Part shown: in pieces, positions 1 to 61,942 of the stretch | How positions within the stretch are numbered: position 1 is the first letter of the stretch | How the letters are laid out: each line of letters starts with the position of its first letter | NCBI GenBank assembly: GCA_964584265.1 | Contig: CAZOZI010000004.1 | Coordinates: forward strand, 1,877-65,876 | DNA: 64,000 bases | Source: an uncultured Candidatus Saccharibacteria bacterium | GTDB taxonomy: Bacteria; Patescibacteriota; Saccharimonadia; Saccharimonadales; CAYVSP01 | Direction: 5' to 3' | The notes under the pieces: generated by a model | What the model saw: only the letters and a program-made list of their open reading frames with translations | Databases searched by the model: none | What the model was told of the DNA's origin: nothing | Program-made: the position numbers and the translations under genes

Positions 1-1812
1 GCACTAGTAATGTACGGTCGAGCTGGAGCCAAGCATGGTCGTGACCCACAATTGTTAATTTTAAGCAGTGAAGCTAAGCAAACGGCGGTACTTAATCTCA
101 CTAAGCTTGATAAAAAAGCTGTCCAGAAATTTTTGAGTACGCACCTAAACAACAAAGCATCGCTGGTTGGCTATGACATCAAATCGACGCTAGAAATCTT
201 GATTGAGCTTGGTGTGCCGCTGCCCGCGGTGGGGCACGATGTACTCATTGGAGCCTTTTTGCTCAACCCGCTTATACGCGAACAATCATTGACTGAGTTG
301 GCTCAAGCTGATCTTGGCTATGATGGTTCATCATTTGAAGATCTTGACCAGGCACAACTAGTTGATCGTGCAGCCGAGATAACAGGTGTAATTACAGCCT
401 TGTATGAAAAACAAACCGCTGCTCTTGCCAAGTTGCCAAAGCTTATTAAGCTGGCTCGTGACATTGAATGGCCGGTTATCCCAGTAATCGCTCGTATGGA
501 ATACGAAGGTATTCAGCTCGATACAGACTACCTCAAAAAAATGAGTGAGCAACTTGACGACATGGTGCTTGAGATTGAGCAAAAAATTTATGGTCACGCC
601 GATCAGGAATTCAATATTGGCTCACCAATCCAGCTAGCCGACATCCTATTTAACAAACTGAATTTGCCTAAAGAAGGTATAAAAAAAGGAAAAACCGGCT
701 ACTCTACAGCTGCCACTGAGCTTGATAAGCTGCGCGGGGCACATCCAATAATTGATCTCGTAACTCAGTGGCGTGAGGTCACCAAACTTAAGAACACCTA
801 CGTCGACGTTATGCCCAAAATGGTGGATGAAAACTCAAGATTACATACCACCTATGCTCTAACCGTCGCGCAAACCGGACGTCTCAGCTCCAATGATCCA
901 AACTTGCAAAATATCCCGGTTCGCACAGACCTCGGTAAGCAGATTCGCACTGCTTTTGTGGCCGGTAAGGGTAAGATACTGGTTAGCGCTGACTATTCTC
1001 AGTTTGAACTACGTCTTGCGGCTTACTTATCTGGCGATAAACGCCTGATTGATATGTTTAACCGCGACGTTGATGTGCATACCACTACTGCCGCCGAAAT
1101 ATATGGCCGCGAAGAACAGGACGTTACTAAAAATATGCGGCGCGAGGCCAAGGTTGTAAATTTTGGCGTAATGTACGGTCTTAGCACGCACGGCCTGGTG
1201 CAGGCTACTGGTCTTACCTACGAACAAGCCAAAAACTTTATTGATAAATACTTTGAAGTTCGCCCAAAGCTACGTGATTATATTGGTTCAGTTCAAGAGA
1301 TGGCCAAAACTAAAGGTTATACAGAGACAATTTTTGGTCGCCGCCGGCCTACACCTGACATTCATTCCTCTAATTTTGCTGTGCGAGAAGCTGCCATGCG
1401 ACAAGCGGTTAACATGCCATTTCAGGGCAGTGCAGCCGACATTATGAAATTGGCCATGATTGCTGTCCAATCTAAGCTCGATGAATTTAATCAGAAGTAT
1501 TTGGGTTTGGATGCAGCGCAAGGAAGCAAGGAGGAGCGAGTGAGCCGTACAAACGGTACGATGAACGAGCGACTGACGCTAGCTGACACAGCGATGCGCC
1601 AAAAGCGCGCCGGTATATCCGGCTCTGCCGGACAACAGGGCAGTGCGGCCCATATACTTCTGCAAATCCATGACAGTTTAATTGTAGAATGCAACGAAAA
1701 AGACGCTGATAAAACGGCCAAATTACTCAAAGATACCATGGAGCACGTCTATAAACTGCCAGTTAAACTCACCGTTGACACCGCAATCGGCAAAAATTGG
1801 GGTGAATTGTGA
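1..1812 (+). CDS. polA: DNA polymerase I, 3' part (5' end outside window)
   Basis: Frame of ORF 10..1812 stays open back to base 1. Family-A polymerase motifs DYSQFELR, RREAKVVNFGVMYG and QIHDSLIVE. Extra ~46-aa segment just before the QIHD strand (see findings). Confidence 0.93.
   Translation, partial: ALVMYGRAGAKHGRDPQLLILSSEAKQTAVLNLTKLDKKAVQKFLSTHLNNKASLVGYDIKSTLEILIELGVPLPAVGHDVLIGAFLLNPLIREQSLTELAQADLGYDGSSFEDLDQAQLVDRAAEITGVITALYEKQTAALAKLPKLIKLARDIEWPVIPVIARMEYEGIQLDTDYLKKMSEQLDDMVLEIEQKIYGHADQEFNIGSPIQLADILFNKLNLPKEGIKKGKTGYSTAATELDKLRGAHPIIDLVTQWREVTKLKNTYVDVMPKMVDENSRLHTTYALTVAQTGRLSSNDPNLQNIPVRTDLGKQIRTAFVAGKGKILVSADYSQFELRLAAYLSGDKRLIDMFNRDVDVHTTTAAEIYGREEQDVTKNMRREAKVVNFGVMYGLSTHGLVQATGLTYEQAKNFIDKYFEVRPKLRDYIGSVQEMAKTKGYTETIFGRRRPTPDIHSSNFAVREAAMRQAVNMPFQGSAADIMKLAMIAVQSKLDEFNQKYLGLDAAQGSKEERVSRTNGTMNERLTLADTAMRQKRAGISGSAGQQGSAAHILLQIHDSLIVECNEKDADKTAKLLKDTMEHVYKLPVKLTVDTAIGKNWGEL
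1510..1648. repeat. P1 palindromic element copy inside polA, in frame
   Basis: GATGCAGCGCAAGGAAG..GGAGCGAG..CCGTAC..GGTACG..GAGCGACTGACGC aligns block by block with the reverse complement of 26308..26426 and 15459..15565. Confidence 0.7.
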
Positions 1813-2943: not shown

Positions 2944-3732
2944 GTCTTCATACCAGCTGACGTCATGGACACGTAAATATAGCTGATGGTTTTTACTTGC
3001 CTGCACAGCAATCATAGCGGCTTCAAGGTTGCGATCTTTGCTGACTTTAAGTTTATTTGCATCTGTTAACAGCTCACCAGTTTTTGTATCAGTTGCCAGA
3101 AAACGTTTCTTGGAGTGCCCAATTACAACTGTTTGATTATTAGGTAGTAACGAAGCAAAACGCAGTAGTTCCCAGTTGAGACGCATGGTCTTGCCAAAAC
3201 CAACACCCGGATCAAGCCAGATATCACTAGACGAAACACCAGCATTTAGAATAATTTGTCTTTGCTGCAAAAGCTCCTGCTTAACTTCTTTAGCACTGTC
3301 CATTCGGAAATTATCATGTGCATCTTTTATTGAACTGGCTTGCAGAGGTAAATGGCTGACTATACAAGTTGCTTTATGGCGAGCTGCGACTTCCACCAGC
3401 GAGGGATTTCGAAATGTAGTCACATCGTTGATAATGAAGGGTCCCAATCGCAAGGCTTTTTCGGCAACTTCTGGATGAAATGTATCTAAGGATAAACGAC
3501 CATGAAATTCTTTATTTAGTATTGGCAAAATGGATTTCAGCCGAGCCCACTCCTCATCAGCAGAAATTGGTTCGACAAATGGGTTGGTGGCCTGTGAGCC
3601 AATGTCTACAATGCCAGCGCCATCAGCAAACAATTTTCTAGCTTGCGTCAAAGCAACAACCGGGTCCAAAAACTTACCACCATCGGAAAAACTATCTGGT
3701 GTAATGTTTAGTATCCCAATAAAACTAACCAT
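2932..3732 (-). CDS. folP: dihydropteroate synthase
   Basis: GILNITPDSFSDGG pterin-binding signature. Start set at MVSFIGILN (3732); ORF-track start 3771 would overlap divergent folK. Confidence 0.88.
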   Translation of the reverse strand: MVSFIGILNITPDSFSDGGKFLDPVVALTQARKLFADGAGIVDIGSQATNPFVEPISADEEWARLKSILPILNKEFHGRLSLDTFHPEVAEKALRLGPFIINDVTTFRNPSLVEVAARHKATCIVSHLPLQASSIKDAHDNFRMDSAKEVKQELLQQRQIILNAGVSSSDIWLDPGVGFGKTMRLNWELLRFASLLPNNQTVVIGHSKKRFLATDTKTGELLTDANKLKVSKDRNLEAAMIAVQASKNHQLYLRVHDVSWYEDLLQ

Positions 3733-6745: not shown

Positions 6746-7783
6746 ATGCCGGAGTTGCCAGAGGTTGAGACGGTTAGAAGTGGGCTTAACAGGTTATTGC
6801 CTGGAAAGCGTGTTAAGTATGTAACGCATAATTGGGCTAAATCTTTTCCAAATGCTGAAGAAGATGTAAAGTGGTTTCTAATTGGTGCCAGAATTAAAAA
6901 AGTGGCACGTCGCGCTAAGATCTTACTAATTGAACTTGATAGCAAATATAGCCTGGTGATTCATTTAAAAATGACCGGGCAACTCGTTTTTGTAAAAAAC
7001 AATCCTTCCAGCGTATCTTCAGGCGAGCAGAATTTCGGTGCGAAGGCGAGCAACGGACCGAGTCGTAAAAGGGTTACGGTGAAGGGAGTAACGCAGCCTT
7101 TAAGCCGAAAAGCTGCCGCAAGCCAGTCTGAACAAGCGACTTGGTCGGTTGAGCTGACTGGCGATGAAGATCGCTGGGGGGCAGGGCATCCAAACGATAG
7201 CTTAATAGGTAATCTACCAGATAAAAGCACCAGAGTTATACTCGATTTTGGCGACAGCAAGCTATTTTTTAACGATCAACGCAAATTTGGCTGGATGCGG
7301 CTCATGCCAACCGCCGAAGTGCTCAACATAGACTTTATGAAAAGACTCGGACCTGAGCCATTGAATGCAGATTTTACTCAGACCACTTTCCGCGAGCGAC
7401 TTAGTCGGCGAGCGAATACAAATATTAAGGCTGCGCTGCTGGATCAAAGCGTTATTGCCGGAATCGGCAACATTTATGCCGATGAATCACTGTGGGGTGC
7501 CAAAATTCATCCAGCCACACTGGTTAAAAACCTATCTTTTAATAAACTCAATCAACTATATGATTCCATGCGTAAAGTGCTGAAACTGGCGATTAAAAAG
7601 GGCGGCTCAACCGATCGAAATTATGTAGACGCTGAGGGCAAAAAGGGCAGTTATTTAAGCTTCGCTAAGGTATTTCGGCGCAATGGGCAGCCGTGCCCAC
7701 GCTGCGGTACAATAATTGAGAAGATACGAGTTGCAGGGCGAGGCACACACTTTTGTACAAAGTGCCAGAAGTTGACAAAATAG
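6746..7783 (+). CDS. mutM: formamidopyrimidine-DNA glycosylase
   Basis: MPELPEVETVRSGL N-terminus, H2TH region, C-terminal zinc finger CPRCG...FCTKCQ. Long internal extra segment (see findings). Confidence 0.9.
   Translation: MPELPEVETVRSGLNRLLPGKRVKYVTHNWAKSFPNAEEDVKWFLIGARIKKVARRAKILLIELDSKYSLVIHLKMTGQLVFVKNNPSSVSSGEQNFGAKASNGPSRKRVTVKGVTQPLSRKAAASQSEQATWSVELTGDEDRWGAGHPNDSLIGNLPDKSTRVILDFGDSKLFFNDQRKFGWMRLMPTAEVLNIDFMKRLGPEPLNADFTQTTFRERLSRRANTNIKAALLDQSVIAGIGNIYADESLWGAKIHPATLVKNLSFNKLNQLYDSMRKVLKLAIKKGGSTDRNYVDAEGKKGSYLSFAKVFRRNGQPCPRCGTIIEKIRVAGRGTHFCTKCQKLTK
7031..7175. repeat. diverged P1-like element inside mutM, in frame
   Basis: ATTTCGGTGCGAAGG..GGACCGAGTCGTAAAAGGGTTACGGTGAAGGGAG...GCGATGAAG shares the ATTTCG terminus and the GTGC-AAGG, GGA-CGAG, CGTA/TACG and GTGA-G-GAG blocks with the P1 consensus. 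Confidence 0.5.
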
Positions 7784-8591: not shown

Positions 8592-9515
8592 GTGATTACA
8601 CTCACTGGGAGTAATAGTTTTGCTTTGAGACGTGAGCTCAATGGGCTAGTTGATGATTTTGTGCAAAAAAACGGTGATATTGCAATTGAAAGGCTTGATG
8701 GGGAAGAATCTGAGTACGCCCGAATTACCGAAGCACTGCAAAGCCTGCCATTTTTAGCGTCTAAGAAACTAGTCGTTCTACGTTCACCAGGAGCCAATAA
8801 GCAATTTGCTGAAAAGTTTGAGAACATAGTACCGACAATATCCGAAACAACAGATGTAATTATCGTTGAGCCAAAGCTTGATAAGCGTACGCAGTACTAC
8901 AAAACGTTGAAAGCTAAGACCGATTTCAAAGAATTTCGTGAGCTTGACCAGCGGCAATTAGCTAACTGGTTGGTAGACGCGGCCAAAAGTAAAAAAGGAA
9001 GCTTAAGTTTCGGCGATGCTTTATATATTGTTGAGCGAGTAGGATCAGACCAGCAATTTCTATATAACGAACTGCAGAAACTACTCGATTATGATTTAAA
9101 AGTTTCGCGTTCGACGATAGATCTATTAACCGAGCCATCACCGCAAAGTACCATTTTTGAACTGCTCGATGCTGCTTTTGCTGGTAAAACTAAGCGCGCA
9201 ATTTCACTCTATGAAGAACAGCGCAAGCAAAAAGTCGAACCTTTAGCAATTATTGCCATGCTTGCCTGGCAGCTACAAATAATGGCTCTGATTAAAGCGG
9301 CAGGAGATAGGACGGCTGAACAAATTGCTAAAGAGGCAAAAATCAATCCATTTGTGGTACGAAAGAATCAACCGTTAGTCAAACATATGACACTTAGTGA
9401 GCTTGAAAAACTCACTGCGCGCGTGTTGGACATTGATATAAAGCTTAAAACCCAGAGCATTGATGCTGATGATGCGCTGCAGCATTTGCTATTAACAATT
9501 ACTCAAACGGAGTAG
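8592..9515 (+). CDS. holA: DNA polymerase III subunit delta
   Basis: 307 aa with the typical HolA N-terminal layout (ITLTGSNSFALRRELNGLVDDF) and length. GTG start. Confidence 0.75.
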   Translation: MITLTGSNSFALRRELNGLVDDFVQKNGDIAIERLDGEESEYARITEALQSLPFLASKKLVVLRSPGANKQFAEKFENIVPTISETTDVIIVEPKLDKRTQYYKTLKAKTDFKEFRELDQRQLANWLVDAAKSKKGSLSFGDALYIVERVGSDQQFLYNELQKLLDYDLKVSRSTIDLLTEPSPQSTIFELLDAAFAGKTKRAISLYEEQRKQKVEPLAIIAMLAWQLQIMALIKAAGDRTAEQIAKEAKINPFVVRKNQPLVKHMTLSELEKLTARVLDIDIKLKTQSIDADDALQHLLLTITQTE

Positions 9516-9655
9516 TTCTTTTCCAAAGAACACAAATGCTATGTTCCATTTTTGTGTCGACAAAAACGGAACCCAAAAAACGACAGGCAGCTGCCAAACA
9601 TGATTGCCGGTCTACCCAGACTTCAGCCGTGCGCTAAAGGACTCCTTTTAGTCGG
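9513..9655 (+). repeat. composite 3'-flank element, left modules (after holA)
   Basis: Module order: TAG-GTTCTTT-tcc-AAAGAAC hairpin; hairpin GTTCC-A-TTTTTG-tgtcga-CAAAAA-C-GGAAC; box AAAACGACAGGCAGC; box AGCCGTGCGCTAAAGGACTCCTTTTAGTCGG. Collinear with 31352..31489. Confidence 0.65.
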
Positions 9656-9820: not shown

Positions 9821-10342
9821 ATGGCTATTTATTGTACAACTGAGGAAGCTAGAGAATATATTAGCCACGAGCTTCCAGTTGGCCTAGAACTACCACGGAA
9901 TACAAACTTTAACACTGTAAAAAATCACTGCGCAACCGCAGTAATTTTTGCCGCGCTGGGTGAACCAGAACAAACACATAATCTTAGCCAACTTTATAGT
10001 GCATTTGCGATCAGAAGTCCGGGCTGGGCTGATGTAGAGTTTACAAAAAATGATTCTAAACGAATACGCGAGAACATAAGACGACGCAGGGATAGCAGCG
10101 AACAAGATGCAAATCTACGATTAGCTGACGGGCGCGAGGAAAATCAGATTGAGGCGTTCCGATTTATCCTAGCAAATGCGTGGAAGCTCGAAGATGATTT
10201 AGTTGATGTTTATGCAGTTGACGCTCAGGGCACGATAGCCAAGGTAACGACTATGGGTGGCTGGGTTGATCTGGAAGATTTTAATTGGCATTGGATAGCT
10301 GAATCAATTGAATCGGGTATTAAGCGAGAATTTAATTCATAA
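9821..10342 (+). CDS. hypothetical protein carried between the two halves of a composite repeat element
   Basis: 173-aa acidic ORF with no recognisable motif. Flanked by repeat modules 9513..9655 and 10415..10602. Confidence 0.6.
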   Translation: MAIYCTTEEAREYISHELPVGLELPRNTNFNTVKNHCATAVIFAALGEPEQTHNLSQLYSAFAIRSPGWADVEFTKNDSKRIRENIRRRRDSSEQDANLRLADGREENQIEAFRFILANAWKLEDDLVDVYAVDAQGTIAKVTTMGGWVDLEDFNWHWIAESIESGIKREFNS

Positions 10343-10414: not shown

Positions 10415-10602
10415 CATCTGAGAGAACCTGACTATATATTGTACAAAACAGGCGTTCTTGGGTGCGAGAGTTGTTTGACGAGTAAAAGATCCAGTGAATC
10501 TTTTACGAGGAGTTCTCGAGCAAGCCTGTTTTGAACTAATAAATAGATCAAGTGAACGAAGCAGCCCAGCAGTTTTGAGACACTTTTGCTGTCAAAAGTG
10601 TC
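10415..10602 (+). repeat. composite element, right module (structured, RNA-like)
   Basis: Aligns along its length with 31601..31785. Closing helix AACAGGC/GCCTGTT. Internal hairpin TAAAAGAT-CCAGTGA-ATCTTTTA. Terminal hairpin GACACTTTTG-ctgt-CAAAAGTGTC. Confidence 0.65.
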
Positions 10603-14726: not shown

Positions 14727-15146
14727 ATGAACGCAGAAACACAAACAAACCGTGCAGCTACATCCCCTACTGTTTTGAGTCATAGTGAAGCCGATAGAAT
14801 ACTTGGTGAAGTTGAAGATACTAATAAAGCGCTGAAAAACGCTAAGATGCAAGTCTTAGGAGAAACAGCTGCTACATCTGGCATTTTAAGCAAGGATGAA
14901 GCTGAGAGAATACTTGGCAAGGTTGAAGATACTAATAAAACGTTCAAAGATTCTAGAACTCAAATTTTAGAAGAAATTCCTAATCCAGATACAGCTGGCT
15001 TGCACAAGGTAGCAAAACCTGACCATCAAATTGCAGCTAATGCTCAACCAGCCGAATTAGCTAACCCAGATATGCTAGTAGTTGATCCAGTCGATACATA
15101 CATTCGTCACGGCAATGACCGCGAACCCGTAGGTGCAGTAAAATAA
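14727..15146 (+). CDS. hypothetical protein with internal tandem repeat
   Basis: Two ~38-aa repeats (SEADRILGEVEDTNKALKNAKMQVLGE / DEAERILGKVEDTNKTFKDSRTQILEE). TGCTATAAT -10 box 14714..14719 lies 7 nt before the ATG. Confidence 0.6.
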   Translation: MNAETQTNRAATSPTVLSHSEADRILGEVEDTNKALKNAKMQVLGETAATSGILSKDEAERILGKVEDTNKTFKDSRTQILEEIPNPDTAGLHKVAKPDHQIAANAQPAELANPDMLVVDPVDTYIRHGNDREPVGAVK

Positions 15147-15190
15147 CTCTTGTATAACAGATAAGGCTGTGCTAATATATTGCTCAGCGT

Positions 15191-15454
15191 ATGGTAACTT
15201 CGGATAAAAAAGTCAAAGCTGCTCCTAAAAAGGCAGCTAAAGTAGATACGGGCAGTACCAGTTTTCAAATTACTCATTTAACTGAGCACATAAAGGATTT
15301 AACTGGCCACCTTAAGGTGAATCCCAAGGATTTTGCAGCCCGACGAGGACTATTGCAGATGGTTGGACATCGCAAGCGTTTACTTAATTATTTAGCTAGC
15401 AAAGATAGCAAACAATACCTTACGCTCAAAGAAAAGCTAGGCATTCGCCGTTGA
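15191..15454 (+). CDS. rpsO: 30S ribosomal protein S15
   Basis: [39 protein letters not shown] is the S15 signature region. Followed by pnp, as in most bacteria. Confidence 0.93.
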
Positions 15455-15458
15455 CCCC

Positions 15459-15565
15459 CTAGTTTTGTACATTTCGTTGTTGGAACTTTCGCTCCGCGCT
15501 CACCGTACCAGTTGAGTACGGCTCGCTTGCGGTGCTCGTTCCGCCTAGAACTGTACTAAAACCAG
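15459..15565. repeat. P1 palindromic element, intergenic copy (rpsO-pnp)
   Basis: ~107-nt imperfect palindrome (CTAGTTTTGTACA...TGTACTAAAACCAG) with core GCTCAC-CGTAC-N7-GTACG-GCTCGCT. Begins 5 nt after the rpsO stop. Confidence 0.75.
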
Positions 15566-15665
15566 AGAGTCAATCTCTAAGTTAACAATTTATACGATTC
15601 GGGAGTAGGACATTAGTCCGCTGGGTATGCGGATTGAATCTTGCGCCCGAACAGAAAGGAATTTG

Positions 15666-17810
15666 ATGGGAACAACGATAAACCCATTTGGCAAGAAAAT
15701 CATTAAAGTAGAAACCGAACTAGCGGGTCGCCCATTCAGCCTAGAAGTAGGGCGGGTTGGTTTTAGAAGCACCGCGTCGGTCTTAGCACGTTATGGCGAA
15801 ACCGTGGTGTTGGCTACTGCTATGGTTAGCCAAAAGAGTATTAGCGGCATGGATTACTTTCCTCTCTCCATTGACTATGAAGAAAAATTTTATGCAGCCG
15901 GTAAAATCAGCGGCAGCCGTTTTATTAAACGCGAAGGGCGACCCTCAGACGATGCTGTGTTGATTGGACGTCTTATTGACCGACCAATTCGTCCGCTTTG
16001 GCCTAAAGGCTATCGTCAAGAAGTACAAGGTGTTGCAACCGTGCTCAGTATGGATCCGGCATTTCGGCCGGACATGGTCGCTATGACTGCCATGAGCGCC
16101 GCATTTATGCTAACGGGCGCCCCATTTGAAGGACCAATAGCCGGACTGCGAGTTGGATTGGTTGATGGCAAATTAAAAGCTTTCGCCAGCTCAGAAGAAC
16201 TAAATGAAGGTCTGCTTGATCTGGTAGTGGCCGGAACCAAAGACGCCATTATGATGGTGGAGGCCGGTGCTAACGAAGTTAGCGAAGAGCAAGTTATTGA
16301 AGCGCTTGCATTCGCACACAAAACCATGCAGCCAGCTATAAAACTGCAACAAGAACTGGTTGAAAAAGTTGGCGTTAGTCCTATTGAATATGAACTTCTT
16401 AAGCCTGATGAAGATGTTCAGAAACGCGTTGAAACATGGTTGGCCGGTAAATTGGGTACAGGACTGCGGGCACCATACCCAGAGCGTAATGATATAGTCG
16501 CAAAACTGCGCGACAGTATGTATGCCCATTTCGAAGAAGAGATAGGTGAACAATTTACTGAGCTCAAAGCCGAATACGACGAAGCCTTTACACTGGCTCT
16601 CCATAAAGATGTTCGTGACGGTATAGTAAAAGAAAGTATCCGTCCTGATGGACGTAAATTGGCCGAGATCAGACCTCTATCGAGCGAAGTAGGATTATTA
16701 CCTAGGGCTCATGGCTCTAGCTTATTTACTCGAGGTATGACTCAGGCGCTGAACATAGTAACGCTTGCACCAACCAGCTACGCGCAAATGCTCGATACAA
16801 TGGAGAGAAACGATAGCCAAAAACGCTATATGCATCACTACAACGCCCCTGGTTACACAGTAGGCGAAGTGCGCCGACTCGGTAGTCCGGGCCGCCGTGA
16901 AATAGGGCACTCTGCCCTTGCTGAACGAGCCTTATTGCCGGTAATTCCGGATGAAGCAACATTTCCTTACGCTATTCGCTCAGTTACTGAAATTATGAGC
17001 CAAAATGGCAGCACCAGTATGGCAGCCACTTGTTCGAGTTGCTTGGCGCTGATGGACGCCGGTGTGCCTTTGCTGCGTCCTGTTAGCGGCATTGCCATGG
17101 GCCTTATGATGGAAGGCAATAAGCCGTATATCCTAAGTGACATAGCTGATGCCGAAGATTTTGCTGGCGACATGGACTTTAAAGTAGCCGGTACCCAAAA
17201 GGGCATTACAGCACTACAAATGGATATGAAAGTACACGGTTTGCCGGTGGAAATACTGGCTGAAGCACTGAAACAGGGCAAAGAGGGACGTACACATATT
17301 CTTAAGCATATGCTCGAAACCATAAATCAACCACGTAGCGAAATGAGTACTTACGCTCCGCGCGTGGAATCAATCAAGATTAACCCCGATAAAATTCGTG
17401 AAGTCATCGGCAAGGGCGGCGAGACCATCAATAAAATTATTGCCGAAACAGGGGCAGAAATTGATATTAAAGATGACGGTACAGTCTTTATAGCTAGTCC
17501 GGACAAAGCTAGTATTGACGGGGCTAAGCAATACATTCAGACACTGACGGCTGAACCAGAAGTGGGCAAAATCTACCGAAACGCTCCAGTTGTTAGCGTT
17601 ATGGACTTTGGTGTTTTTGTGCAGATTATGCCAGGCAAAGACGGGCTCGTGCATGTTTCTGAAATGAAAGAAGAGCGCGTAAACAAGCCGAGCGATGTTG
17701 TTAAAGAGGGTGATTTGGTTACCGTTAAGTTGGTCGCTATTGATGATAAGGGGCGCCTGAATCTAAGTATGAAACAGGCAATAAAAGAGGAGCAAAATGT
17801 CAAAGGTTAA
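15666..17810 (+). CDS. pnp: polynucleotide phosphorylase
   Basis: Two RNase PH domains plus KH and S1 C-terminal domains. Start at ATG 15666, preceded by AAAGGAA. Confidence 0.93.
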   Translation: MGTTINPFGKKIIKVETELAGRPFSLEVGRVGFRSTASVLARYGETVVLATAMVSQKSISGMDYFPLSIDYEEKFYAAGKISGSRFIKREGRPSDDAVLIGRLIDRPIRPLWPKGYRQEVQGVATVLSMDPAFRPDMVAMTAMSAAFMLTGAPFEGPIAGLRVGLVDGKLKAFASSEELNEGLLDLVVAGTKDAIMMVEAGANEVSEEQVIEALAFAHKTMQPAIKLQQELVEKVGVSPIEYELLKPDEDVQKRVETWLAGKLGTGLRAPYPERNDIVAKLRDSMYAHFEEEIGEQFTELKAEYDEAFTLALHKDVRDGIVKESIRPDGRKLAEIRPLSSEVGLLPRAHGSSLFTRGMTQALNIVTLAPTSYAQMLDTMERNDSQKRYMHHYNAPGYTVGEVRRLGSPGRREIGHSALAERALLPVIPDEATFPYAIRSVTEIMSQNGSTSMAATCSSCLALMDAGVPLLRPVSGIAMGLMMEGNKPYILSDIADAEDFAGDMDFKVAGTQKGITALQMDMKVHGLPVEILAEALKQGKEGRTHILKHMLETINQPRSEMSTYAPRVESIKINPDKIREVIGKGGETINKIIAETGAEIDIKDDGTVFIASPDKASIDGAKQYIQTLTAEPEVGKIYRNAPVVSVMDFGVFVQIMPGKDGLVHVSEMKEERVNKPSDVVKEGDLVTVKLVAIDDKGRLNLSMKQAIKEEQNVKG

Positions 17811-24700: not shown

Positions 24701-24820
24701 TCAGAGTATGAACGTCTATTGACCAACAGGGGTAAGTAAGCTATACTTGTGCGGTCATTAGTACTTCAGGTTACTGCATCTTTTGAGCGAGTAGCCTTTA
24801 ACCAAGAGAAGGACACTATT

Positions 24821-25420
24821 ATGAGTGCACGAGCAACGCAGGCCGATGAAGAACAAGGCGCTGGCGAGGAGCGCAAAGAAGATGTACAACAAAGTACTTC
24901 GACTGCGCACCGGAGTCAGCAACAGGGGTCCCCAGAAAGCCAGCTTTCCGGGGTAAAGCGCCGTAATGCATCGGCAAGTACTGACGGAGTCAGCAGCTCT
25001 CCTGGTGAACAGGTCAGTACGGTGCGTGGGTCGGTGAATCAGTACGAAATTGCTGTGCTATATCATCCGGATTTAGAAATTGATTTGGATAAAGCCGAAA
25101 AACGGGTGACCAAGATTTTTACCGACAACGTTGGCAAGGTGGTCAAAACCGACAATTGGGGCAAGCGTAAATTGGCGTATCCCATCAAAAAGAGTGAGTC
25201 AGCCGTTTACGTATTTTACACAGTTGAAATACCGGCAGAAGGTGTGCGAAAAATTGAAAGCACGCTGAATATTACAGATGAGGTTATACGTTATCTAATT
25301 GTTCGTCCTGATCTTAAGGCTATCGCTAAAGCAGAAGCTGCCAAAACCGAAAAGGCAAAAAAGGCGGCTGAGCGTGGTGATGGCGAAGAAGACAATGAAA
25401 ATGAGCATACAGAGGAATAA
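24821..25420 (+). CDS. rpsF: 30S ribosomal protein S6 (with ~70-aa N-terminal extension, or a shorter protein from GTG 25034)
   Basis: The S6 core starts at NQYEIAVLYHPD. ATG 24821 has GAAGGA upstream and the frame is open throughout. The extension is built from repeat modules (see findings). Confidence 0.85.
   Translation: MSARATQADEEQGAGEERKEDVQQSTSTAHRSQQQGSPESQLSGVKRRNASASTDGVSSSPGEQVSTVRGSVNQYEIAVLYHPDLEIDLDKAEKRVTKIFTDNVGKVVKTDNWGKRKLAYPIKKSESAVYVFYTVEIPAEGVRKIESTLNITDEVIRYLIVRPDLKAIAKAEAAKTEKAKKAAERGDGEEDNENEHTEE
24845..24912. repeat. P1-like element core in the rpsF 5' region
   Basis: GATGAAGAACAAGG..GGAGCGCAAAGAAGATGTACAACAAAGTACTTCGACTGCGC has the same block order as the polA copy (GATG-AG, CAAGG, GGAGCG, GTAC-GTAC, GCGC). 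Confidence 0.55.
24930..24953. repeat. hairpin module GGGGT-[CCCCAGAAAGC..GCTTTCCGGGG]-TAAAG
   Basis: Shares flanks and architecture with 52418..52445 but has a different, still complementary stem sequence. Confidence 0.55.
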
Positions 25421-26097: not shown

Positions 26098-26301
26098 ATG
26101 GCAAAGATTTTTAAATATAGAACAGACGTCCCGTTTTTCGACTATAAGGATTTTAAAACCTTGCAGCGCTACGTTAATGGCTACGGGCAGATTGAAACCC
26201 GTAAGAAAACAGGTCTAACTGAAAGCCAGCAACGTCGTTTGAGCGTGGCTATCAAACGCGCGCGACACATTGCACTCTTACCTTTTGTGGCAAACGGCTA
26301 G
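26098..26301 (+). CDS. rpsR: 30S ribosomal protein S18
   Basis: DYKDFKTLQRYVNGYGQIETRKKTGL and RRLSVAIKRARHIALLPF. Canonical rpsF-ssb-rpsR order. Confidence 0.93.
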   Translation: MAKIFKYRTDVPFFDYKDFKTLQRYVNGYGQIETRKKTGLTESQQRRLSVAIKRARHIALLPFVANG

Positions 26302-26307
26302 TATTTT

Positions 26308-26426
26308 TAGCCTATATTTCGCGAATTGCGGCGTCAGAACCTCCGCGCTTCGCTCACTGTACTGCTTACGGTACAGCTCGCTCCAGTACTCAGTTCTTCC
26401 TTGCACTTCATCGAAATGATAGGCTA
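26308..26426. repeat. P1 palindromic element, intergenic copy (rpsR-efp)
   Basis: 119-nt imperfect palindrome with termini TAGCCTAT-ATTTCG...CGAAAT-G-ATAGGCTA and core GCTCAC-TGTAC-N8-GTACA-GCTCGCT. Begins 7 nt after the rpsR stop. Confidence 0.75.
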
Positions 26427-26441
26427 AATTAGGAGATAATT

Positions 26442-30390: not shown

Positions 30391-31329
30391 ATGCAAAATG
30401 TAAATGCGTGGCTATGGCCACGCCGTTACTACGTATATTCCAAAAAGATGCCTCGTATTCAGCCGGGGCCGTTTGTAGTTGCAGTAATGGGTGGTGTGAT
30501 TATCCTAAGTTTGGGTATGTTAGTTCGTGCCCGAGTAATGCCACAGGCTTTGTCGCCTGCTCAGGCAAAATTAGTTGCACTACCAACTATTCCTGAAACC
30601 GAAAAAACGTCAGCACAAACACCTCCTACGATTGAGCCGGTTTCTAGTTATATTGGCCTTCAGCAACCTGTTAATAATTGGATTAATGCTCATAAAAGTG
30701 TGCAATGGGGAGTTGACTTGCAAGATGTTGCTAATCCGATCAATCAGTTGAGCATTAATGCCGGCGAAAGTTTTGAGGGTGCAAGCATATATAAATTGTT
30801 TTTGACGATTCCACTTGCTGCCAGACTGCCTTTTAGTTCTTGGCGTTCTCAATACGTTTGGAGTGAGCAAGGGCGTCGTACCTATGCAGATTGCGTGCAA
30901 GCTATGCTGTCTGTTTCAGATAACCCTTGTGGAGTTGCAGTCGGTAGTTATTTGGGCTGGGCTCGGGTTAGCCAAAGTCTTCATAGTCAAGGTTTCGGTA
31001 ACACATCGCTGCTCAATAGCCCCATTACTACCACGGCAGCAGATACGGCTAGTTATCTGGTAGGCCTTCAGCAAGGCAAATGGTTTGATGCTCAAACACG
31101 GACATTTATCCTTGCTAGTTTAGCTCAACAGCGTTTTCGATCAGGCATTCCCCAAGGTTGCAGCGGCTGCACCGTCTTAAATAAAACTGGCCAGCTTGAT
31201 GGCTATACTCACGACGCAGCCATAATCCAAAAAGGTACCCACGTCTATGTACTCGCAATTTTTTCTAAAGGTGGCAGTTATGAACAGATTGCGCAGCTAA
31301 GCCAACTTATTAATTCGCAAATACATTAA
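30391..31329 (+). CDS. membrane-anchored serine hydrolase, class A beta-lactamase/PBP-like
   Basis: SxxK (ASIYK), SDN (SVSDNP) and KTG (NKTGQ) motifs in the right order. N-terminal TM. Start 30391 or ATG 30448. Confidence 0.7.
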   Translation: MQNVNAWLWPRRYYVYSKKMPRIQPGPFVVAVMGGVIILSLGMLVRARVMPQALSPAQAKLVALPTIPETEKTSAQTPPTIEPVSSYIGLQQPVNNWINAHKSVQWGVDLQDVANPINQLSINAGESFEGASIYKLFLTIPLAARLPFSSWRSQYVWSEQGRRTYADCVQAMLSVSDNPCGVAVGSYLGWARVSQSLHSQGFGNTSLLNSPITTTAADTASYLVGLQQGKWFDAQTRTFILASLAQQRFRSGIPQGCSGCTVLNKTGQLDGYTHDAAIIQKGTHVYVLAIFSKGGSYEQIAQLSQLINSQIH

Positions 31330-31351
31330 ATATTTAGCTACAGAGTTCCGT

Positions 31352-31489
31352 AGCGTTCTTCGAACGCTTCATGCAACTACCTTTCTTTGGTTGCAAAGAA
31401 AGGTAGTAAAGAAACAACAGGCGACGAGAATACACAACTGTTCGCAGATACCAGTTACGGCCGTGTGCCAAAGGACTCCCTTCGGTCGG
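31352..31489 (+). repeat. composite 3'-flank element, left modules (ORF-less copy)
   Basis: AGCGTTC-ttc-GAACGCT hairpin (31352..31368), 13-bp hairpin CTACCTTTCTTTG-gttg-CAAAGAAAGGTAG (31377..31406), box AAACAACAGGCGAC, box GGCCGTGTGCCAAAGGACTCCCTTCGGTCGG. Confidence 0.65.
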
Positions 31490-31600
31490 TCTGGCTCTTT
31501 TTTCATGAATCGAGCCAGACTGTCTTTGTCCCAATGACTCGGCCTAACCTGATTGTTCACAATCGGTTTTCTCGAGCCTGGCTAAATCAGGCTCTAGGAA

Positions 31601-31785
31601 CATCTGACTAGATGCTGTAAGAAATAGGCGCCCGTGGGTGCGAGGACTGCTTGACGAGATTTTTAGCCAGTGGCTAAAAATTGAGGAGTTCCGCAGCAAG
31701 CCTGTTTATTACAGCAGATAGATCAAATGTGACGAATGCCTGTCGTTTTTTGGGTTCTGTTTTTGTCGACACAAAAATGGAACAT
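31601..31785 (+). repeat. composite element, right module (ORF-less copy)
   Basis: Closing helix AATAGGC/GCCTGTT and internal hairpin ATTTTTAG-CCAGTGG-CTAAAAAT. Ends with an inverted copy (31738..31785) of the 9541..9589 hairpin block. Confidence 0.65.
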
Positions 31786-31808
31786 GTTTGGTTATTTGAA
31801 AAATAACA

Positions 31809-32921
31809 CTATACGTTGAACCTAAACTCCACCACATCATTGGGCTGCATGATATAGGTTTTGCCTTCGGTGCGGACCTTGCCGACAGCTCTAGCAGCAG
31901 CCAACGAACCATTCGTAACTAAATCGTTATAATCAATTATTTCAGCCGCAATAAAGCCACGTTCAAAATCGCCGTGTATAACACCAGCCGCCTCGGGCGC
32001 AGTTGCGCCCTTGGTAATAGTCCAAGCGCGCACTTCTTTTTCACCAGCGGTAAGATAACTTTGTAGTTCCAACATGTCATAGGCAGCGTGGATTAGTTGG
32101 ATCAACCCGGATTCCTTTTGGCCGTAGCTATCAAGTAGTTCTTGGCGATCAATTTCATCCAGACCTCTTAATTCGCTTTCTAATTTGGCGCAGACAAAAA
32201 GAGCTTTTGCAGGCTCAACATGCTTGTGCAAGGATTCCTTGCTAGCTTCGTCGCTAAGAGCCTTTTCATCTACGTTAAAAAGATAAATGATTGGTTTAGC
32301 TGTCAGCAACTGAAGACTGCGAAAATATTCACCTTCGCCACTTTGCATTCTAATATTCTCGAGAATATTAGAATGATACAATGGCTTATTTGATTGAAGG
32401 AGTTGATGTATTTCTTTTAGAAGAGTGAGAGATGGCTTAAGCTTGGGCTCAGCTTTGGCCTCTTTTTGAAGTACTAGTAGTCGTTTCTCAACAGTTTGTA
32501 GATCGGCTAGCACCAACTCGGTGTTGATTACTTCGATGTCTTTTTTTGGGTCGTTCCGCTGGCCAGCGGATTCATCTACATGCTGTACGTTTGGATCCTT
32601 AAAGGCGCGCACTACCTGTACGATGGCATTGCAGCTGCGGATATGGCTTAAGAATTGGTTGCCCAACCCTTCACCCTGGCTTGCACCAGCTACAAGTCCA
32701 GCAATATCCACAAATGTAACCGTGGCAGGCTTAATGGGTACATTGCCATACATTTCACTAAGTTTTTGCAGACGTTCATCTGGAATGGGGACGATACCGG
32801 TATTAGGTTCAATGGTGGCGAAAGGATAATTGGCTGCCAAAATATTATTATCGGTCAGCGCATTGAATAAGGTGGACTTACCGACGTTCGGCAGCCCGAC
32901 AATCCCAATTGATAAAGACAT
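31809..32921 (-). CDS. ychF: redox-regulated ATPase YchF
   Basis: GIVGLPNVGKSTLFNALT P-loop, TGS C-terminal domain. TGTTACAAT -10 lies 6 nt before the ATG. Confidence 0.93.
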   Translation of the reverse strand: MSLSIGIVGLPNVGKSTLFNALTDNNILAANYPFATIEPNTGIVPIPDERLQKLSEMYGNVPIKPATVTFVDIAGLVAGASQGEGLGNQFLSHIRSCNAIVQVVRAFKDPNVQHVDESAGQRNDPKKDIEVINTELVLADLQTVEKRLLVLQKEAKAEPKLKPSLTLLKEIHQLLQSNKPLYHSNILENIRMQSGEGEYFRSLQLLTAKPIIYLFNVDEKALSDEASKESLHKHVEPAKALFVCAKLESELRGLDEIDRQELLDSYGQKESGLIQLIHAAYDMLELQSYLTAGEKEVRAWTITKGATAPEAAGVIHGDFERGFIAAEIIDYNDLVTNGSLAAARAVGKVRTEGKTYIMQPNDVVEFRFNV

Positions 32922-55876: not shown

Positions 55877-55905
55877 ATTTTAGCACAAAAGGTATAAAAA
55901 GTCAA
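55877..55905 (-). promoter_or_regulatory. promoter of array unit 5 (type 2 module)
   Basis: TTGACT-17-TAAAAT with TGC upstream of the -10. 6 nt to the ATG. Confidence 0.7.
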
Positions 55906-55929
55906 TATTCATGCTTCTTTAACATTGCC

Positions 55930-55963
55930 GGTGTGCCTGCCTGCCGTAGGTAGGGAACTATTT
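55930..55963. repeat. array junction motif (unit 4/5 junction)
   Basis: Plus-strand reading GGTGTGCCTGCCTGCCGTAGGTAGGGAACTATTT. Confidence 0.8.
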
Positions 55964-55999
55964 ATAACTAGCAAACAAAAACCCAGTAACCAATAGGCT

Positions 56000-56323: not shown

Positions 56324-56342
56324 GATAATTTCCTGAGTATTT

Positions 56343-56371
56343 ATTCTAGCATAAACATGATAGAAAGTCAA
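56343..56371 (-). promoter_or_regulatory. promoter of array unit 4 (type 2 module)
   Basis: TTGACT-17-TAGAAT. Here a 19-nt leader with AGGAAA precedes the ATG. Confidence 0.7.
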
Positions 56372-56372
56372 C

Positions 56373-56386
56373 TGGCGGACCTTAAC
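56373..56386 (-). repeat. tRNA-Asp 3'-end-like sequence, junction 3/4
   Basis: Minus strand GTTAAGGTCCGCCA followed by GTTGAC (-35). Compare tRNA-Asp GTCGGGCCCGCCA followed by GTTGAT. Confidence 0.55.
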
Positions 56387-56392
56387 AGAAGA

Positions 56393-56408
56393 GGTGTGGA
56401 ATTATTTT
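56393..56408. repeat. array junction motif, short form (unit 3/4 junction)
   Basis: GGTGTGGAATTATTTT is the same flanks with the central 19 nt (GCCTGCCTGCCGTAGGTAG) precisely absent. Confidence 0.7.
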
Positions 56409-57379: not shown

Positions 57380-57408
57380 ATAATACCACAAAAGTAGTAT
57401 TAAAGCAA
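57380..57408 (-). promoter_or_regulatory. promoter of array unit 3 (type 1 module)
   Basis: TTGCTT-17-TATTAT, 7 nt to the ATG. About 90 percent identical by eye to the unit 1 promoter, including ATACTAC-N4-GTGGTAT. Confidence 0.7.
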
Positions 57409-57411
57409 CAC

Positions 57412-57426
57412 TGGCGGACCCTGACG
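57412..57426 (-). repeat. tRNA-Asp 3'-end-like sequence, junction 2/3
   Basis: Minus strand CGTCAGGGTCCGCCA. Matches 12 of 13 tRNA 3'-end positions with one 1-nt indel. Confidence 0.55.
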
Positions 57427-57431
57427 TTGCA

Positions 57432-57466
57432 GGTGTGCCTGCCTGCCGTAAGTAGGGAACTATTTT
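57432..57466. repeat. array junction motif (unit 2/3 junction)
   Basis: GGTGTGCCTGCCTGCCGTAAGTAGGGAACTATTTT. Confidence 0.8.
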
Positions 57467-57499
57467 GTGTTTTCAGAAGGTTTTGCTAAAAAAAAGCTA

Positions 57500-58126: not shown

Positions 58127-58155
58127 ATTGTAGCATAAACAGTATGAAAAGTCAA
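58127..58155 (-). promoter_or_regulatory. promoter of array unit 2 (type 2 module)
   Basis: TTGACT-17-TACAAT with TGC upstream of the -10. 6 nt to the ATG. Confidence 0.7.
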
Positions 58156-58156
58156 T

Positions 58157-58171
58157 TGGTGGGCCTTGACG
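58157..58171 (-). repeat. tRNA-Asp 3'-end-like sequence, junction 1/2
   Basis: Minus strand CGTCAAGGCCCACCA followed by ATTGAC (-35). Confidence 0.5.
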
Positions 58172-58176
58172 TTAGA

Positions 58177-58211
58177 GGTGTGCCTGCCTGCCGTAGGTAG
58201 GGAATTATTTT
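58177..58211. repeat. array junction motif (unit 1/2 junction)
   Basis: GGTGTGCCTGCCTGCCGTAGGTAGGGAATTATTTT. Its 3' part supplies the last codons and TAA stop of unit 1. Confidence 0.8.
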
Positions 58212-58636
58212 CTTAATTCAGGTACGACTAACGCACCGTTGTCCATAGGAATACTGTAACGATTAATCTGAGGAACGCTTAAGGATGCGGCCGTATGGAA
58301 TTCATCAGGATAAAGACGAACCCATGTAAAATCTCCTCGAGGTCTAAAAGCCCTTGCTGTAGCTACGCCGCCGACCTTAAATAGTATTCTTAACTTACCA
58401 AGCTCTAAAGATGAGCCAACGACACGAAACTCAGGGTCTGTTCTATATACTTCAGATGGTAACAAACCCCGCATGAAGCCGTTAAGTTCGTCTGCAGTAT
58501 ATAGGGGGGTTGCTGGATAACTGTGGACTTCATAACCAACCACGTCTCCATCTTCATGATGATCACGAACAGCAGCAACTACCAGTTCAGGGTTTGCTTG
58601 TAATGTGTCAACTACATCTCTTGGAAAATTAGCCAT
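58205..58636 (-). CDS. hypothetical protein, array unit 1
   Basis: 143-aa ORF. Promoter TTGATT-17-TATTAT starts 1 nt after the tRNA-Asp CCA end and ends 7 nt before the ATG. Confidence 0.65.
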   Translation of the reverse strand: MANFPRDVVDTLQANPELVVAAVRDHHEDGDVVGYEVHSYPATPLYTADELNGFMRGLLPSEVYRTDPEFRVVGSSLELGKLRILFKVGGVATARAFRPRGDFTWVRLYPDEFHTAASLSVPQINRYSIPMDNGALVVPELRK

Positions 58637-61811: not shown

Positions 61812-61856
61812 CCGCAAGCGCACTTGTAACGGTACTCAAGTAATGAGCGCCTCCCG
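61812..61856. repeat. partial P1 element (nrdR-tgt intergenic)
   Basis: CCGCAAGCG...GTACTCAA...TGAGCGC matches the reverse complement of copy 15459..15565 (CCGCAAGCG AGCC GTACTCAA CTGGTACGG TGAGCGC). Confidence 0.5.
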
Positions 61857-61942
61857 GTTAACTCGAGTAATATAGTGCAAACGAGCAAGAAAGTCAACAA
61901 TATGACATAGCATAAGCGTCTTAGAGTGCTACAATACTATTC

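Follow-up and report, generated by a model that had tools for sequence, protein, structure and literature searches.

Short imperfect palindromes dispersed through bacterial genomes provide the background for an element, termed E1 here, that lies between the ribosomal protein S15 gene rpsO and the polynucleotide phosphorylase (PNPase) gene pnp in an uncultured Candidatus Saccharibacteria bacterium (GCA_964584265.1, contig CAZOZI010000004.1); the window analyzed is a stretch of 64,000 nucleotides (nt) of this contig, from 1,877 to 65,876 of the forward strand. In behavior the closest systems are the enterobacterial repetitive intergenic consensus (ERIC) in size, palindromic form and intergenic position, the Rickettsia palindromic elements (RPEs) in their in-frame insertion within reduced genomes, and the repetitive extragenic palindromes (REPs) in their proximity to stop codons and recognition as single strands. 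The ERIC sequences, also called intergenic repeat units (IRUs), are dispersed, non-coding imperfect palindromes of ~125 nt in transcribed intergenic regions, which are conserved across species and thought to be non-autonomous mobile elements with side effects at the RNA level. The RPEs are palindromes of 100–150 nt, confined to Rickettsia and close relatives, which are inserted in frame in genes, including essential ones, of the reduced genomes of these host-dependent bacteria and add a peptide to the product; we know of no transposase for them, and to our knowledge neither adjacency to stop codons nor a conserved core of G.A and G.U pairs has been described for them. REPs and bacterial interspersed mosaic elements (BIMEs) are orientation-dependent extragenic palindromes near stop codons, believed to be recognized as folded single strands by a transposase acting in trans; the REP units are 20–40 nt long, clustered and carry a conserved GTAG head. 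The Correia elements of Neisseria, including nemis, and the MITEs (miniature inverted-repeat transposable elements) are small, non-autonomous and hairpin-forming, are co-transcribed with their neighbors, and possess conserved terminal inverted repeats, target-site duplications and a recognizable parent insertion sequence; RNase III processing has been reported for nemis, which parallels the idea of an RNase III site at E1. Finally, the attC sites of integrons are imperfect palindromes of 57–141 nt directly downstream of open reading frames (ORFs), in which only the strand antisense to the cassette genes folds as the recombination substrate.

Comparison of E1 with the rest of the window and with other genomes makes it likely, though well short of certain, that E1 is a single inserted copy of a palindromic mobile element that is non-autonomous and conserved in structure. 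The first-pass annotation had recognized a 107-nt imperfect palindrome between rpsO and pnp (15459–15565) and had assigned it to a dispersed repeat family. The palindrome is present and folds on both strands; its extent is slightly greater than proposed, with a paired region of ~15451–15574 within a footprint of 15448–15576 on the minus strand, over which it matches R1, our covariance model of the family, at full length (105.5 bits, E = 6e-25). A second intact copy, E2, lies directly 3' of the rpsR stop codon (TAG, 26299–26301; rpsR, 26098–26301) and 10 nt ahead of efp (26303–26431, minus strand, 95.8 bits, E = 2e-22, full length). The ordered blocks that had suggested a relationship between the two, namely ATTTCG, GAAC, CTCCGCGCT, CACYGTAC, GTACRGCTCGCT and GTTC, are all found in both, and the similarity exceeds chance by shuffles, blastn and R1. 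Given that E1 and E2 are part of the seed of R1, their matches to the model are partly by construction, and independent support for their membership comes from the exact apex pattern and from blastn: the composite apex GCTCACYGTAC-N(4-12)-GTACRGCTCGC matches the window at E1 and E2 only, with spacings of 7 or 8 nt, and was encountered in none of 100 shuffles, and blastn relates E1 to E2 at E = 5e-5, E2 to a minus-strand stretch of polA at 4e-7 and E1 to the polA stretch at 0.03. An nhmmer profile of E1, E2 and the polA copy drew in no further significant match in the window. The two intact copies are ~68% identical, and their outer stems are unrelated in sequence, each still pairing almost perfectly. 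R1 comprises 128 positions and 38 pairs and rests on a hand-checked seed of 20 family sequences; it replaced RNAalifold on a raw MAFFT alignment, which recovered the apex alone because the arms were misaligned. The third stem (P3) was left unpaired in the model, its pairs being too misaligned in the seed alignment for inclusion. The window was searched with R1 with the filters off, and the resulting E-values are uncertain roughly fivefold.

One genome per species (185,579 species, 596 Gb) was scanned with the 22-base apex pattern GCTCAYYGTAC-N(3-9)-GTACRGCTCRC. This detected at least 119 stretches, against ~8 expected by chance under uniform base composition, given a pattern of 18 fixed plus 4 two-fold positions with 7 spacings and a search space of 1.2e12 positions. 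The total is a lower bound, and all family-wide copy statistics given here rest on the matches listed, which include 120 pattern matches and, among these, 117 distinct copies with full flanks. The assignment to a dispersed palindromic repeat family is thus supported both by the window statistics and by the species-genome scan, which takes the census proposed by the first-pass annotation well beyond this genome. At least 80 of the listed stretches are in metagenome-assembled genomes (MAGs) named as Patescibacteria, with at least 51 being of Saccharibacteria type by record title and at least 29 from other named Patescibacteria. The Nanosyncoccus MAGs L037, L040, L050 and L111 are among those with copies. 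There are further stretches in unclassified 'bacterium' records (at least 11), Rokubacteria/Methylomirabilota (at least 8), MAGs labelled Gammaproteobacteria (at least 8), Byssovorax (at least 6), Acidoferrum (at least 3), Bdellovibrionales (at least 2) and Burkholderiaceae (at least 1), with the labels Gammaproteobacteria, Bdellovibrionales and Burkholderiaceae being taken from the record title alone. The Burkholderiaceae contig has neighboring genes in common with Saccharibacteria contigs and may be mis-binned. Copies in contigs of 66–73% G+C cannot, on account of this composition, stem from Patescibacteria, and the family spans Patescibacteria and at least three other phyla.

We fetched 99 stretches of up to 8 kb each for a reading of the neighborhoods; the number of copies per stretch ranges from 1 to 4, and 15 of the 99 hold 2–4. 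In four Rokubacteria MAGs the copies are nearly identical end to end, whereas in Kaiserbacteria the copies of one genome are divergent from each other. One Kaiserbacteria stretch (L051, 3727–5141) accommodates four copies inside 1.4 kb, two of them just 5 nt apart, and another stretch (L061, 4155–4505) has two copies 222 nt apart adjoining two tRNA genes. Searches with blastn against plasmids and phages returned no relevant match. At Rfam gathering scores the window and 18 loci yielded tRNAs and one unrelated LOOT RNA with nothing on the element, and at E <= 10 nothing relevant was recovered on E1 or on a canonical Rokubacteria copy. The LOOT RNA (RF03000, 81 bits) is located at 838–960 of an element-bearing contig labelled Gammaproteobacteria (L025).

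Nearly all pattern matches, as represented by the 117 distinct copies, fold into the same rod-shaped hairpin of ~118–128 nt with the same conserved blocks. The conserved structure is carried by the strand reading GCGAGCCGTAC-loop-GTACGGTGAGCG, which is the reverse of the one read in the first-pass annotation: this structured strand folds better in 116 of 117 copies, with mean energies of -65.2 versus -52.7 kcal/mol, a difference of 12.5. In E1 the minus strand folds as RNA at -60.2 kcal/mol (z = -8.0) and the plus strand at -44 kcal/mol (z = -5.3), and the corresponding values for E2 are -50.8 and -40.3 kcal/mol. The order of stems and loops was derived from individual folds and the 20-sequence seed. 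The outermost stem (P1) spans ~20 bp and is variable in sequence. Inside it are a tandem GA/GA loop and a covarying 3-bp stem (UGC/GCA, UUC/GAA, UAC/GUA or ACC/GGU), followed by a conserved asymmetric loop with NAGGCG opposite CAACGNN, a variable P2 of 4–7 bp, a GA/GA(A) loop and P3. Below the apex the order is GA/GA, GC and GA/GA, and the apex stem itself, GCCGUAC/GUACGGU, is nearly invariant and closed by a conserved G.U pair, which was observed in 111 of 120 sequences. The first-pass annotation was correct in pointing to the direct repeats GCTCAC and GCTCGC around a short inverted repeat; on the other strand these are seen as tandem G.A/A.G mismatches.

In the alignment of 121 matches to R1, 90.8% of pair cells are standard pairs, as against 61.5% after shuffling and 28–38% with slid partners, and compensatory changes on both sides are seen at 36 of the 38 modelled pairs. 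On the structured strand G.U outnumbers A.C by 257 to 83 with the apex-closing pair excluded (201 to 64 in P1 alone), and there are 239 purine-purine mismatches as against 82 of the pyrimidine-pyrimidine kind. Copies recovered by R1 alone (polA, mutM, L090 and L051) retain GAGCCGTA...TACGGTGAG. DNA and RNA folding energies did not discriminate between the two forms, and the element itself codes for nothing. In its apex, GAGCCGUA...GUACGGU and the G.U pair resemble a yeast sequence of group II intron domain V, and in the window the apex GAGCCGUAC...GUACGGU (15496–15528) is identical over 8 + 7 nt to the lower helix of that domain; this likeness was treated as coincidence because there is no Rfam intron match and no upper helix or bulge.

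E1 begins at the stop codon of rpsO (15191–15454, plus strand; TGA, 15452–15454), for whose identical protein Pfam Ribosomal_S15 is recorded, and its structured minus strand is antisense to both rpsO and pnp. The latter gene (15666–17810, plus strand) is preceded by an AAAGGA ribosome-binding site, and its start was taken to be the ATG at 15666, as the likelier one, and not the ORF-list start at 15627; 80 PNPase relatives align from its residue 1–5. These relatives, at 63–86% identity, were obtained from a metagenome scan with the PNPase N-terminus. In 68 of the 80 loci rpsO adjoins pnp, with spacers that mostly measure 146–200 nt. R1 detected a copy in 3 of the 68 syntenic spacers, which amount to two distinct sequences, L184 and the identical pair L187/L188; the filled spacers are 308–309 nt long, and their copies also begin at the rpsO stop in the same orientation as E1. 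By eye these copies belong to another subfamily with differing loops and outer stem, and on this ground they appear to have been inserted independently at the position that E1 occupies. The closest PNPase relative (L123, 86% identity) lacks a family copy, and its spacer aligns with the window from ~15590 onward only. A segment identical to the rpsO-pnp segment of the window is present in run SRR9179560.

Just upstream of the pnp ribosome-binding site is a different hairpin (15597–15655, plus strand, TTCGGGAGTAGGACATTAGTCCGC...GCGGATTGAATCTTGCGCCCGAA), which is not a member of the family and aligns almost base for base with L123. Related leader hairpins with the motif GGGUGAUAGAGCACAG-[inner hairpin]-UUGAACCUUGUCACCC were seen by eye in many relatives; this conservation was seen rather than measured, because RNAalifold gave no consensus on the rough alignment. 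The hairpin at 15597–15655 has no Rfam match at E <= 10. The first-pass annotation had noted that a long hairpin is expected here, E. coli having a terminator and RNase III site between rpsO and pnp. The counterpart of that expected hairpin is not E1 but the apparently conserved one at 15597–15655, which is likely to be a cis-regulatory pnp leader in Saccharimonadales; E1 is missing from 65 of 68 relatives as well as from the closest one, which is not the distribution of a conserved pnp leader hairpin. Likewise, the combination of a stem-loop with a T run that marks intrinsic terminators was not found for E1: there is no terminator-like site in 15100–15800, neither E1 nor E2 has a T-run after its hairpin, and the only terminator-like site near E2 is a small hairpin at 26296–26312 separate from it. 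On the minus strand a weak promoter-like site is directed into E2, and no such site is directed into E1.

Within the 64 kb R1 retrieved five matches, three of which are strong, one backed by an independent protein insertion and one marginal. Six copies had been proposed by the first-pass annotation, and the four at rpsO-pnp, after rpsR, in polA and in mutM are supported; the one in rpsF is marginal, and the sixth, at 61812–61856, received no R1 match up to E = 10. The polA copy, E3 (1491–1618, plus strand, 53.1 bits, E = 3e-11), is diverged and in frame, and is located in a loop before the conserved QIHD motif with its structured strand as the sense strand. The window PolA (ORF 10–1812) has ~50 residues between AMIAVQSKL and ILLQIHD, where 17 of 21 aligned Saccharimonadales homologs have at most one, and E3 supplies most of these extra residues; the names of the homologs place the source organism within Saccharimonadales; the Pfam DNA_pol_A match is split in two, the first part ending at residue 494. 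Inserts are also found in this loop elsewhere in Saccharimonadales, with a GAACGAA tandem repeat in L002 (~620–730) and a different palindrome in L003 (~1100–1240), and these inserts of the two nearest homologs were ruled out as family members. Insertions seem to land, or to be tolerated, repeatedly in the loop that holds E3.

The mutM/fpg copy, E4 (7006–7133, plus strand, 24.9 bits, E = 6e-4, full length), is decayed, and lies in frame in ORF 6746–7783 at residues ~88–130. It coincides with an insertion in the N-terminal domain of Fpg, and the Fapy_DNA_glyco match ends at residue 87 (profile position 90 of 117), exactly at E4. E3 and E4 have the same orientation and the same reading frame across the apex. 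The Saccharibacteria Fpg of L009, 42% identical to that of the window, has an intact copy (3064–3191) at the equivalent position of the protein but oriented oppositely to E4, which implies either independent insertions or the flipping of the palindrome in place. The partial match E5 (24854–24927, plus strand, 20.4 bits, E = 0.009) covers model positions 29–101 of the inner element and lies ~110 nt upstream of the start of the S6 (rpsF) domain, which Pfam places at residue 98 of ORF 24749–25420. Being within the E-value uncertainty of R1, this match could still be due to chance. Beyond the window, longest-ORF calls at the family loci place copies in genes for Fpg, class I tRNA synthetase (two), ArgRS, PurD and DnaE. 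Together with the window copies, ORFs run through copies in PolA, Fpg (two), class I tRNA synthetase (two), ArgRS, PurD and DnaE, and Pfam domains flank or are interrupted by them; the read-through is predicted from these ORFs. Six of the seven antisense in-gene copies examined encode an AHRTxSTAR core in a single frame. A profile of the six peptides gave no match in the protein database, the query being too short for the word index.

Clustering of 613 neighboring ORFs within 3 kb revealed no linked gene, as even the most widespread cluster was encountered at 6 of 117 copies. Those formed are EF-G, L27 and its neighbor, an ABC transporter, ATP synthase subunits, pyrophosphatase and PolA; with only such housekeeping clusters, each at no more than 6 of 117 copies, a linked transposase or other gene was ruled out. 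Where the flanking genes are in tandem the structured strand is antisense to them in 52 cases and sense in 13, with 36 antisense against 9 sense in loci below 56% G+C (p = 7e-5). Convergent genes surround sixteen copies and divergent genes nine. For 37 tandem cases, the beginning of the footprint was measured relative to the end of the preceding stop codon, giving a median of -3 nt (interquartile range -7 to +5); in 30 of the 37 this stop is nearer to the footprint than the following start is. E1 and E2 conform to this pattern, and the structured strand of E2 is antisense to rpsR and efp. Family copies occur after highly expressed genes, such as rpsO, rpsR, rpmA, fusA and the atp genes. At their ends we found neither a target-site duplication (flanking direct repeats are 0–1 nt in 99 of 114 copies) nor conserved terminal nucleotides, the outer stem varying between copies, and nothing is conserved outside the hairpin. 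A composite autonomous element with split ends was also looked for, and no split copies flanking a gene were detected in ~0.9 Mb of loci. GC skew suggests that the plus strand of the window is the leading strand, and the structured strands of E1 and E2 would therefore lie on the leading-strand template, opposite to the IS200/IS605 rule.

We found no description of this family in the open-access literature searched or in Rfam. It resembles ERIC in its size of ~125 nt, its palindromic form and its dispersal; however, blastn (word size 11) against 5,426 complete E. coli genomes gave no match at E <= 0.1, and by this measure it does not share the enterobacterial consensus. It also spans phyla, whereas ERIC is restricted to one order, shows no TA duplication, and differs in its conserved tandem G.A loops, strand-specific structure and in-frame entry into genes. 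This last feature, with its predicted peptide read-through, is shared with the RPEs. Unlike REPs, the element is ~125 nt long, lacks the GTAG head and is mostly solitary; no gene for a REP-associated tyrosine transposase (RAYT) was seen near any copy among the ORFs of stretches of up to 8 kb, whole genomes not having been searched. The terminal repeats, duplications and parent insertion sequence by which Correia elements and MITEs are recognized were all not found. The attC sites are similar in their variable sequence, the conservation of structure on one strand and the position right after ORFs, but the RYYYAAC...GTTRRRY boxes are absent in either orientation, and NAGGCG and CAACGNN lie opposite each other without pairing. 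Attempts to read the conserved blocks as attC-like boxes were rejected, as the blocks do not fit; neither arrays nor an integrase cluster were detected among the neighbors of the family.

The family behaves as an inserting element in that its copies are sporadic in orthologous spacers, missing from most polA homologs, present in multiple numbers in some stretches and nearly identical among four Rokubacteria MAGs, and it is non-autonomous in that no protein gene is linked to it among its neighbors. We infer that it would be mobilized by an enzyme supplied in trans, and that one of the strands, in folded form and either as single-stranded DNA or as RNA, would be recognized through the conserved non-Watson-Crick core. 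Insertions would settle or persist chiefly behind stop codons and within protein surface loops that are permissive for them, with in-frame read-through in the latter, and their retention would be roughly fourfold more frequent in the orientation that leaves the weaker-folding complement in the host mRNA. For the orientation bias, a reading by replication strand and one by the purging of copies whose strong hairpin would fall in the mRNA are equally good. Placed between the rpsO stop and the native pnp leader hairpin, E1 would presumably be co-transcribed with both genes as a moderately stable hairpin, and any effect on the stability of the rpsO 3' end or on pnp processing would be secondary.

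Several observations weigh against an inserted mobile element. As no target-site duplication, conserved termini or parent transposon was found, transposition itself is presumed. The ~68% identity of E1 and E2, with stems that are unrelated and yet paired, looks like long-term selection on each copy and not like a recent selfish burst, and conserved tandem G.A loops with a conserved G.U pair are a usual mark of functional RNAs. Host mRNA mostly does not contain the structured strand, and for co-directional genes this strand is also not the lagging-strand template, which misfits the known single-strand mechanism of IS200/IS605. It should also be noted that the gene calls at the family loci are crude longest-ORF calls, that the pair counts come from an alignment fitted to R1 and that the apex conservation among the scan matches is partly forced by the search pattern. 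The main competing explanation, which we regard as rather unlikely, is a structured RNA or DNA module beneficial to the host, with each copy kept by host selection, either as a post-stop hairpin that protects mRNA 3' ends, tunes termination or punctuates operons, or as the binding site of a conserved protein; such post-stop roles have been proposed for REP in E. coli and ERIC in Yersinia. It would account for outer stems that are wholly different between copies yet paired, 36 of the 38 pairs having changed in a compensatory manner, for the preference of G.U over A.C by ~3 to 1 even in the variable stem, for the majority of tandem-context copies abutting the upstream stop codon, for positions after highly expressed genes (rpsO, rpsR, rpmA, fusA and atp) and for a copy at the same post-rpsO spot in two lineages. 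However, relative to its flanking genes the better-folding strand is more often antisense than sense, by ~4 to 1, and therefore the host mRNA usually carries the weaker version; moreover, a host module sits poorly with sporadic presence at the rpsO-pnp site (3 of 68 relatives), copies within coding regions of essential genes, the lack of a T-run after E1 or E2 and copy numbers of 1–4 per stretch of up to 8 kb.

The strand-specific structure with its covariation, the conserved non-canonical loops and G.U pair, and the weak promoter-like minus-strand site reading into E2 could also be explained if each copy were a small non-coding RNA gene on the structured strand, acting with a protein partner via the G.A-rich loops. 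This appears still less probable than a host module, as nothing outside the hairpin is conserved and hence no promoter or terminator is shared, no promoter-like minus-strand site reads into E1, copies lie inside ORFs in both orientations, no Rfam family matches and presence at orthologous sites is sporadic. That the similarity within the window is due to chance, and that the hairpin is this species' own rpsO terminator or pnp RNase III site, is hardly credible: a hairpin is indeed expected in this spacer by analogy with E. coli, and E1 taken alone would resemble one, but shuffles, blastn and R1 reject chance, at least 119 matches of the same architecture occur elsewhere, it is another sequence, that at 15597–15655, which makes up the apparently conserved pnp leader hairpin, and the closest relative lacks E1. 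A lack of statistical support together with an absence of further copies, under which the first-pass annotation would have given up the family, was accordingly not what we observed. Returning to the inserted mobile element, a more speculative and rather doubtful extension is that the core, with its four tandem G.A loops, asymmetric loop and invariant G.U-closed apex on just one of the strands, might be the recognition or catalytic module of an undescribed mobility system that acts on folded single strands and moves between Patescibacteria and unrelated soil phyla (Rokubacteria, Acidobacteria and Myxococcota). In that case the family would constitute a structured mobile element of a new class and more than a further MITE-like repeat. 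An alternative reading of the same core, which would be equally novel, is a widespread functional RNA that has colonized coding regions.

The very small genomes of Patescibacteria are commonly portrayed as streamlined, with little mobile DNA. This picture would change with four or five copies within 64 kb, of which two lie in DNA-repair and replication genes, and with recurrence in at least 80 Patescibacteria MAGs. For annotation, the family explains part of the hitherto unexplained extra segments in PolA, Fpg, tRNA synthetases, PurD and DnaE, and its intergenic hairpins could be mistaken for terminators or regulatory leaders. The near-identical loops in four phyla and the strand-specific structure offer a handle for finding the recognizing factor, and the family may mark DNA exchange between epibiotic Patescibacteria and other phyla.

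Other repeats were observed in the window. The spacer at 31329–31809 belongs to a second repeat family, having three blocks in common with the flanks (9515–9655 and 10428–10554) of ORF 9821–10342: 31737–31807 corresponds to 9589–9515 (inverted, 88%), 31604–31729 to 10428–10554 (69%) and 31460–31489 to 9626–9655 (83%); no Rfam match was obtained for this family. Between truB and rpsO, a 111-nt coding segment is duplicated in tandem at 14773–14976 within the small ORF 14727–15146, which has no recorded Pfam family; 93 aligned nt are 74% identical, and the repeated peptides are EADRILGEVEDTNKALK / EAERILGKVEDTNKTFK. Three spacers by minus-strand ORFs (55887–55974, 57389–57476 and 58134–58221) have in common a repeat of 88 nt, whose core is GGTGTGCCTGCCTGCCGTAGGTAGGGAAC, and shorter relatives of it occur at 56340–56398 and 61868–61898.

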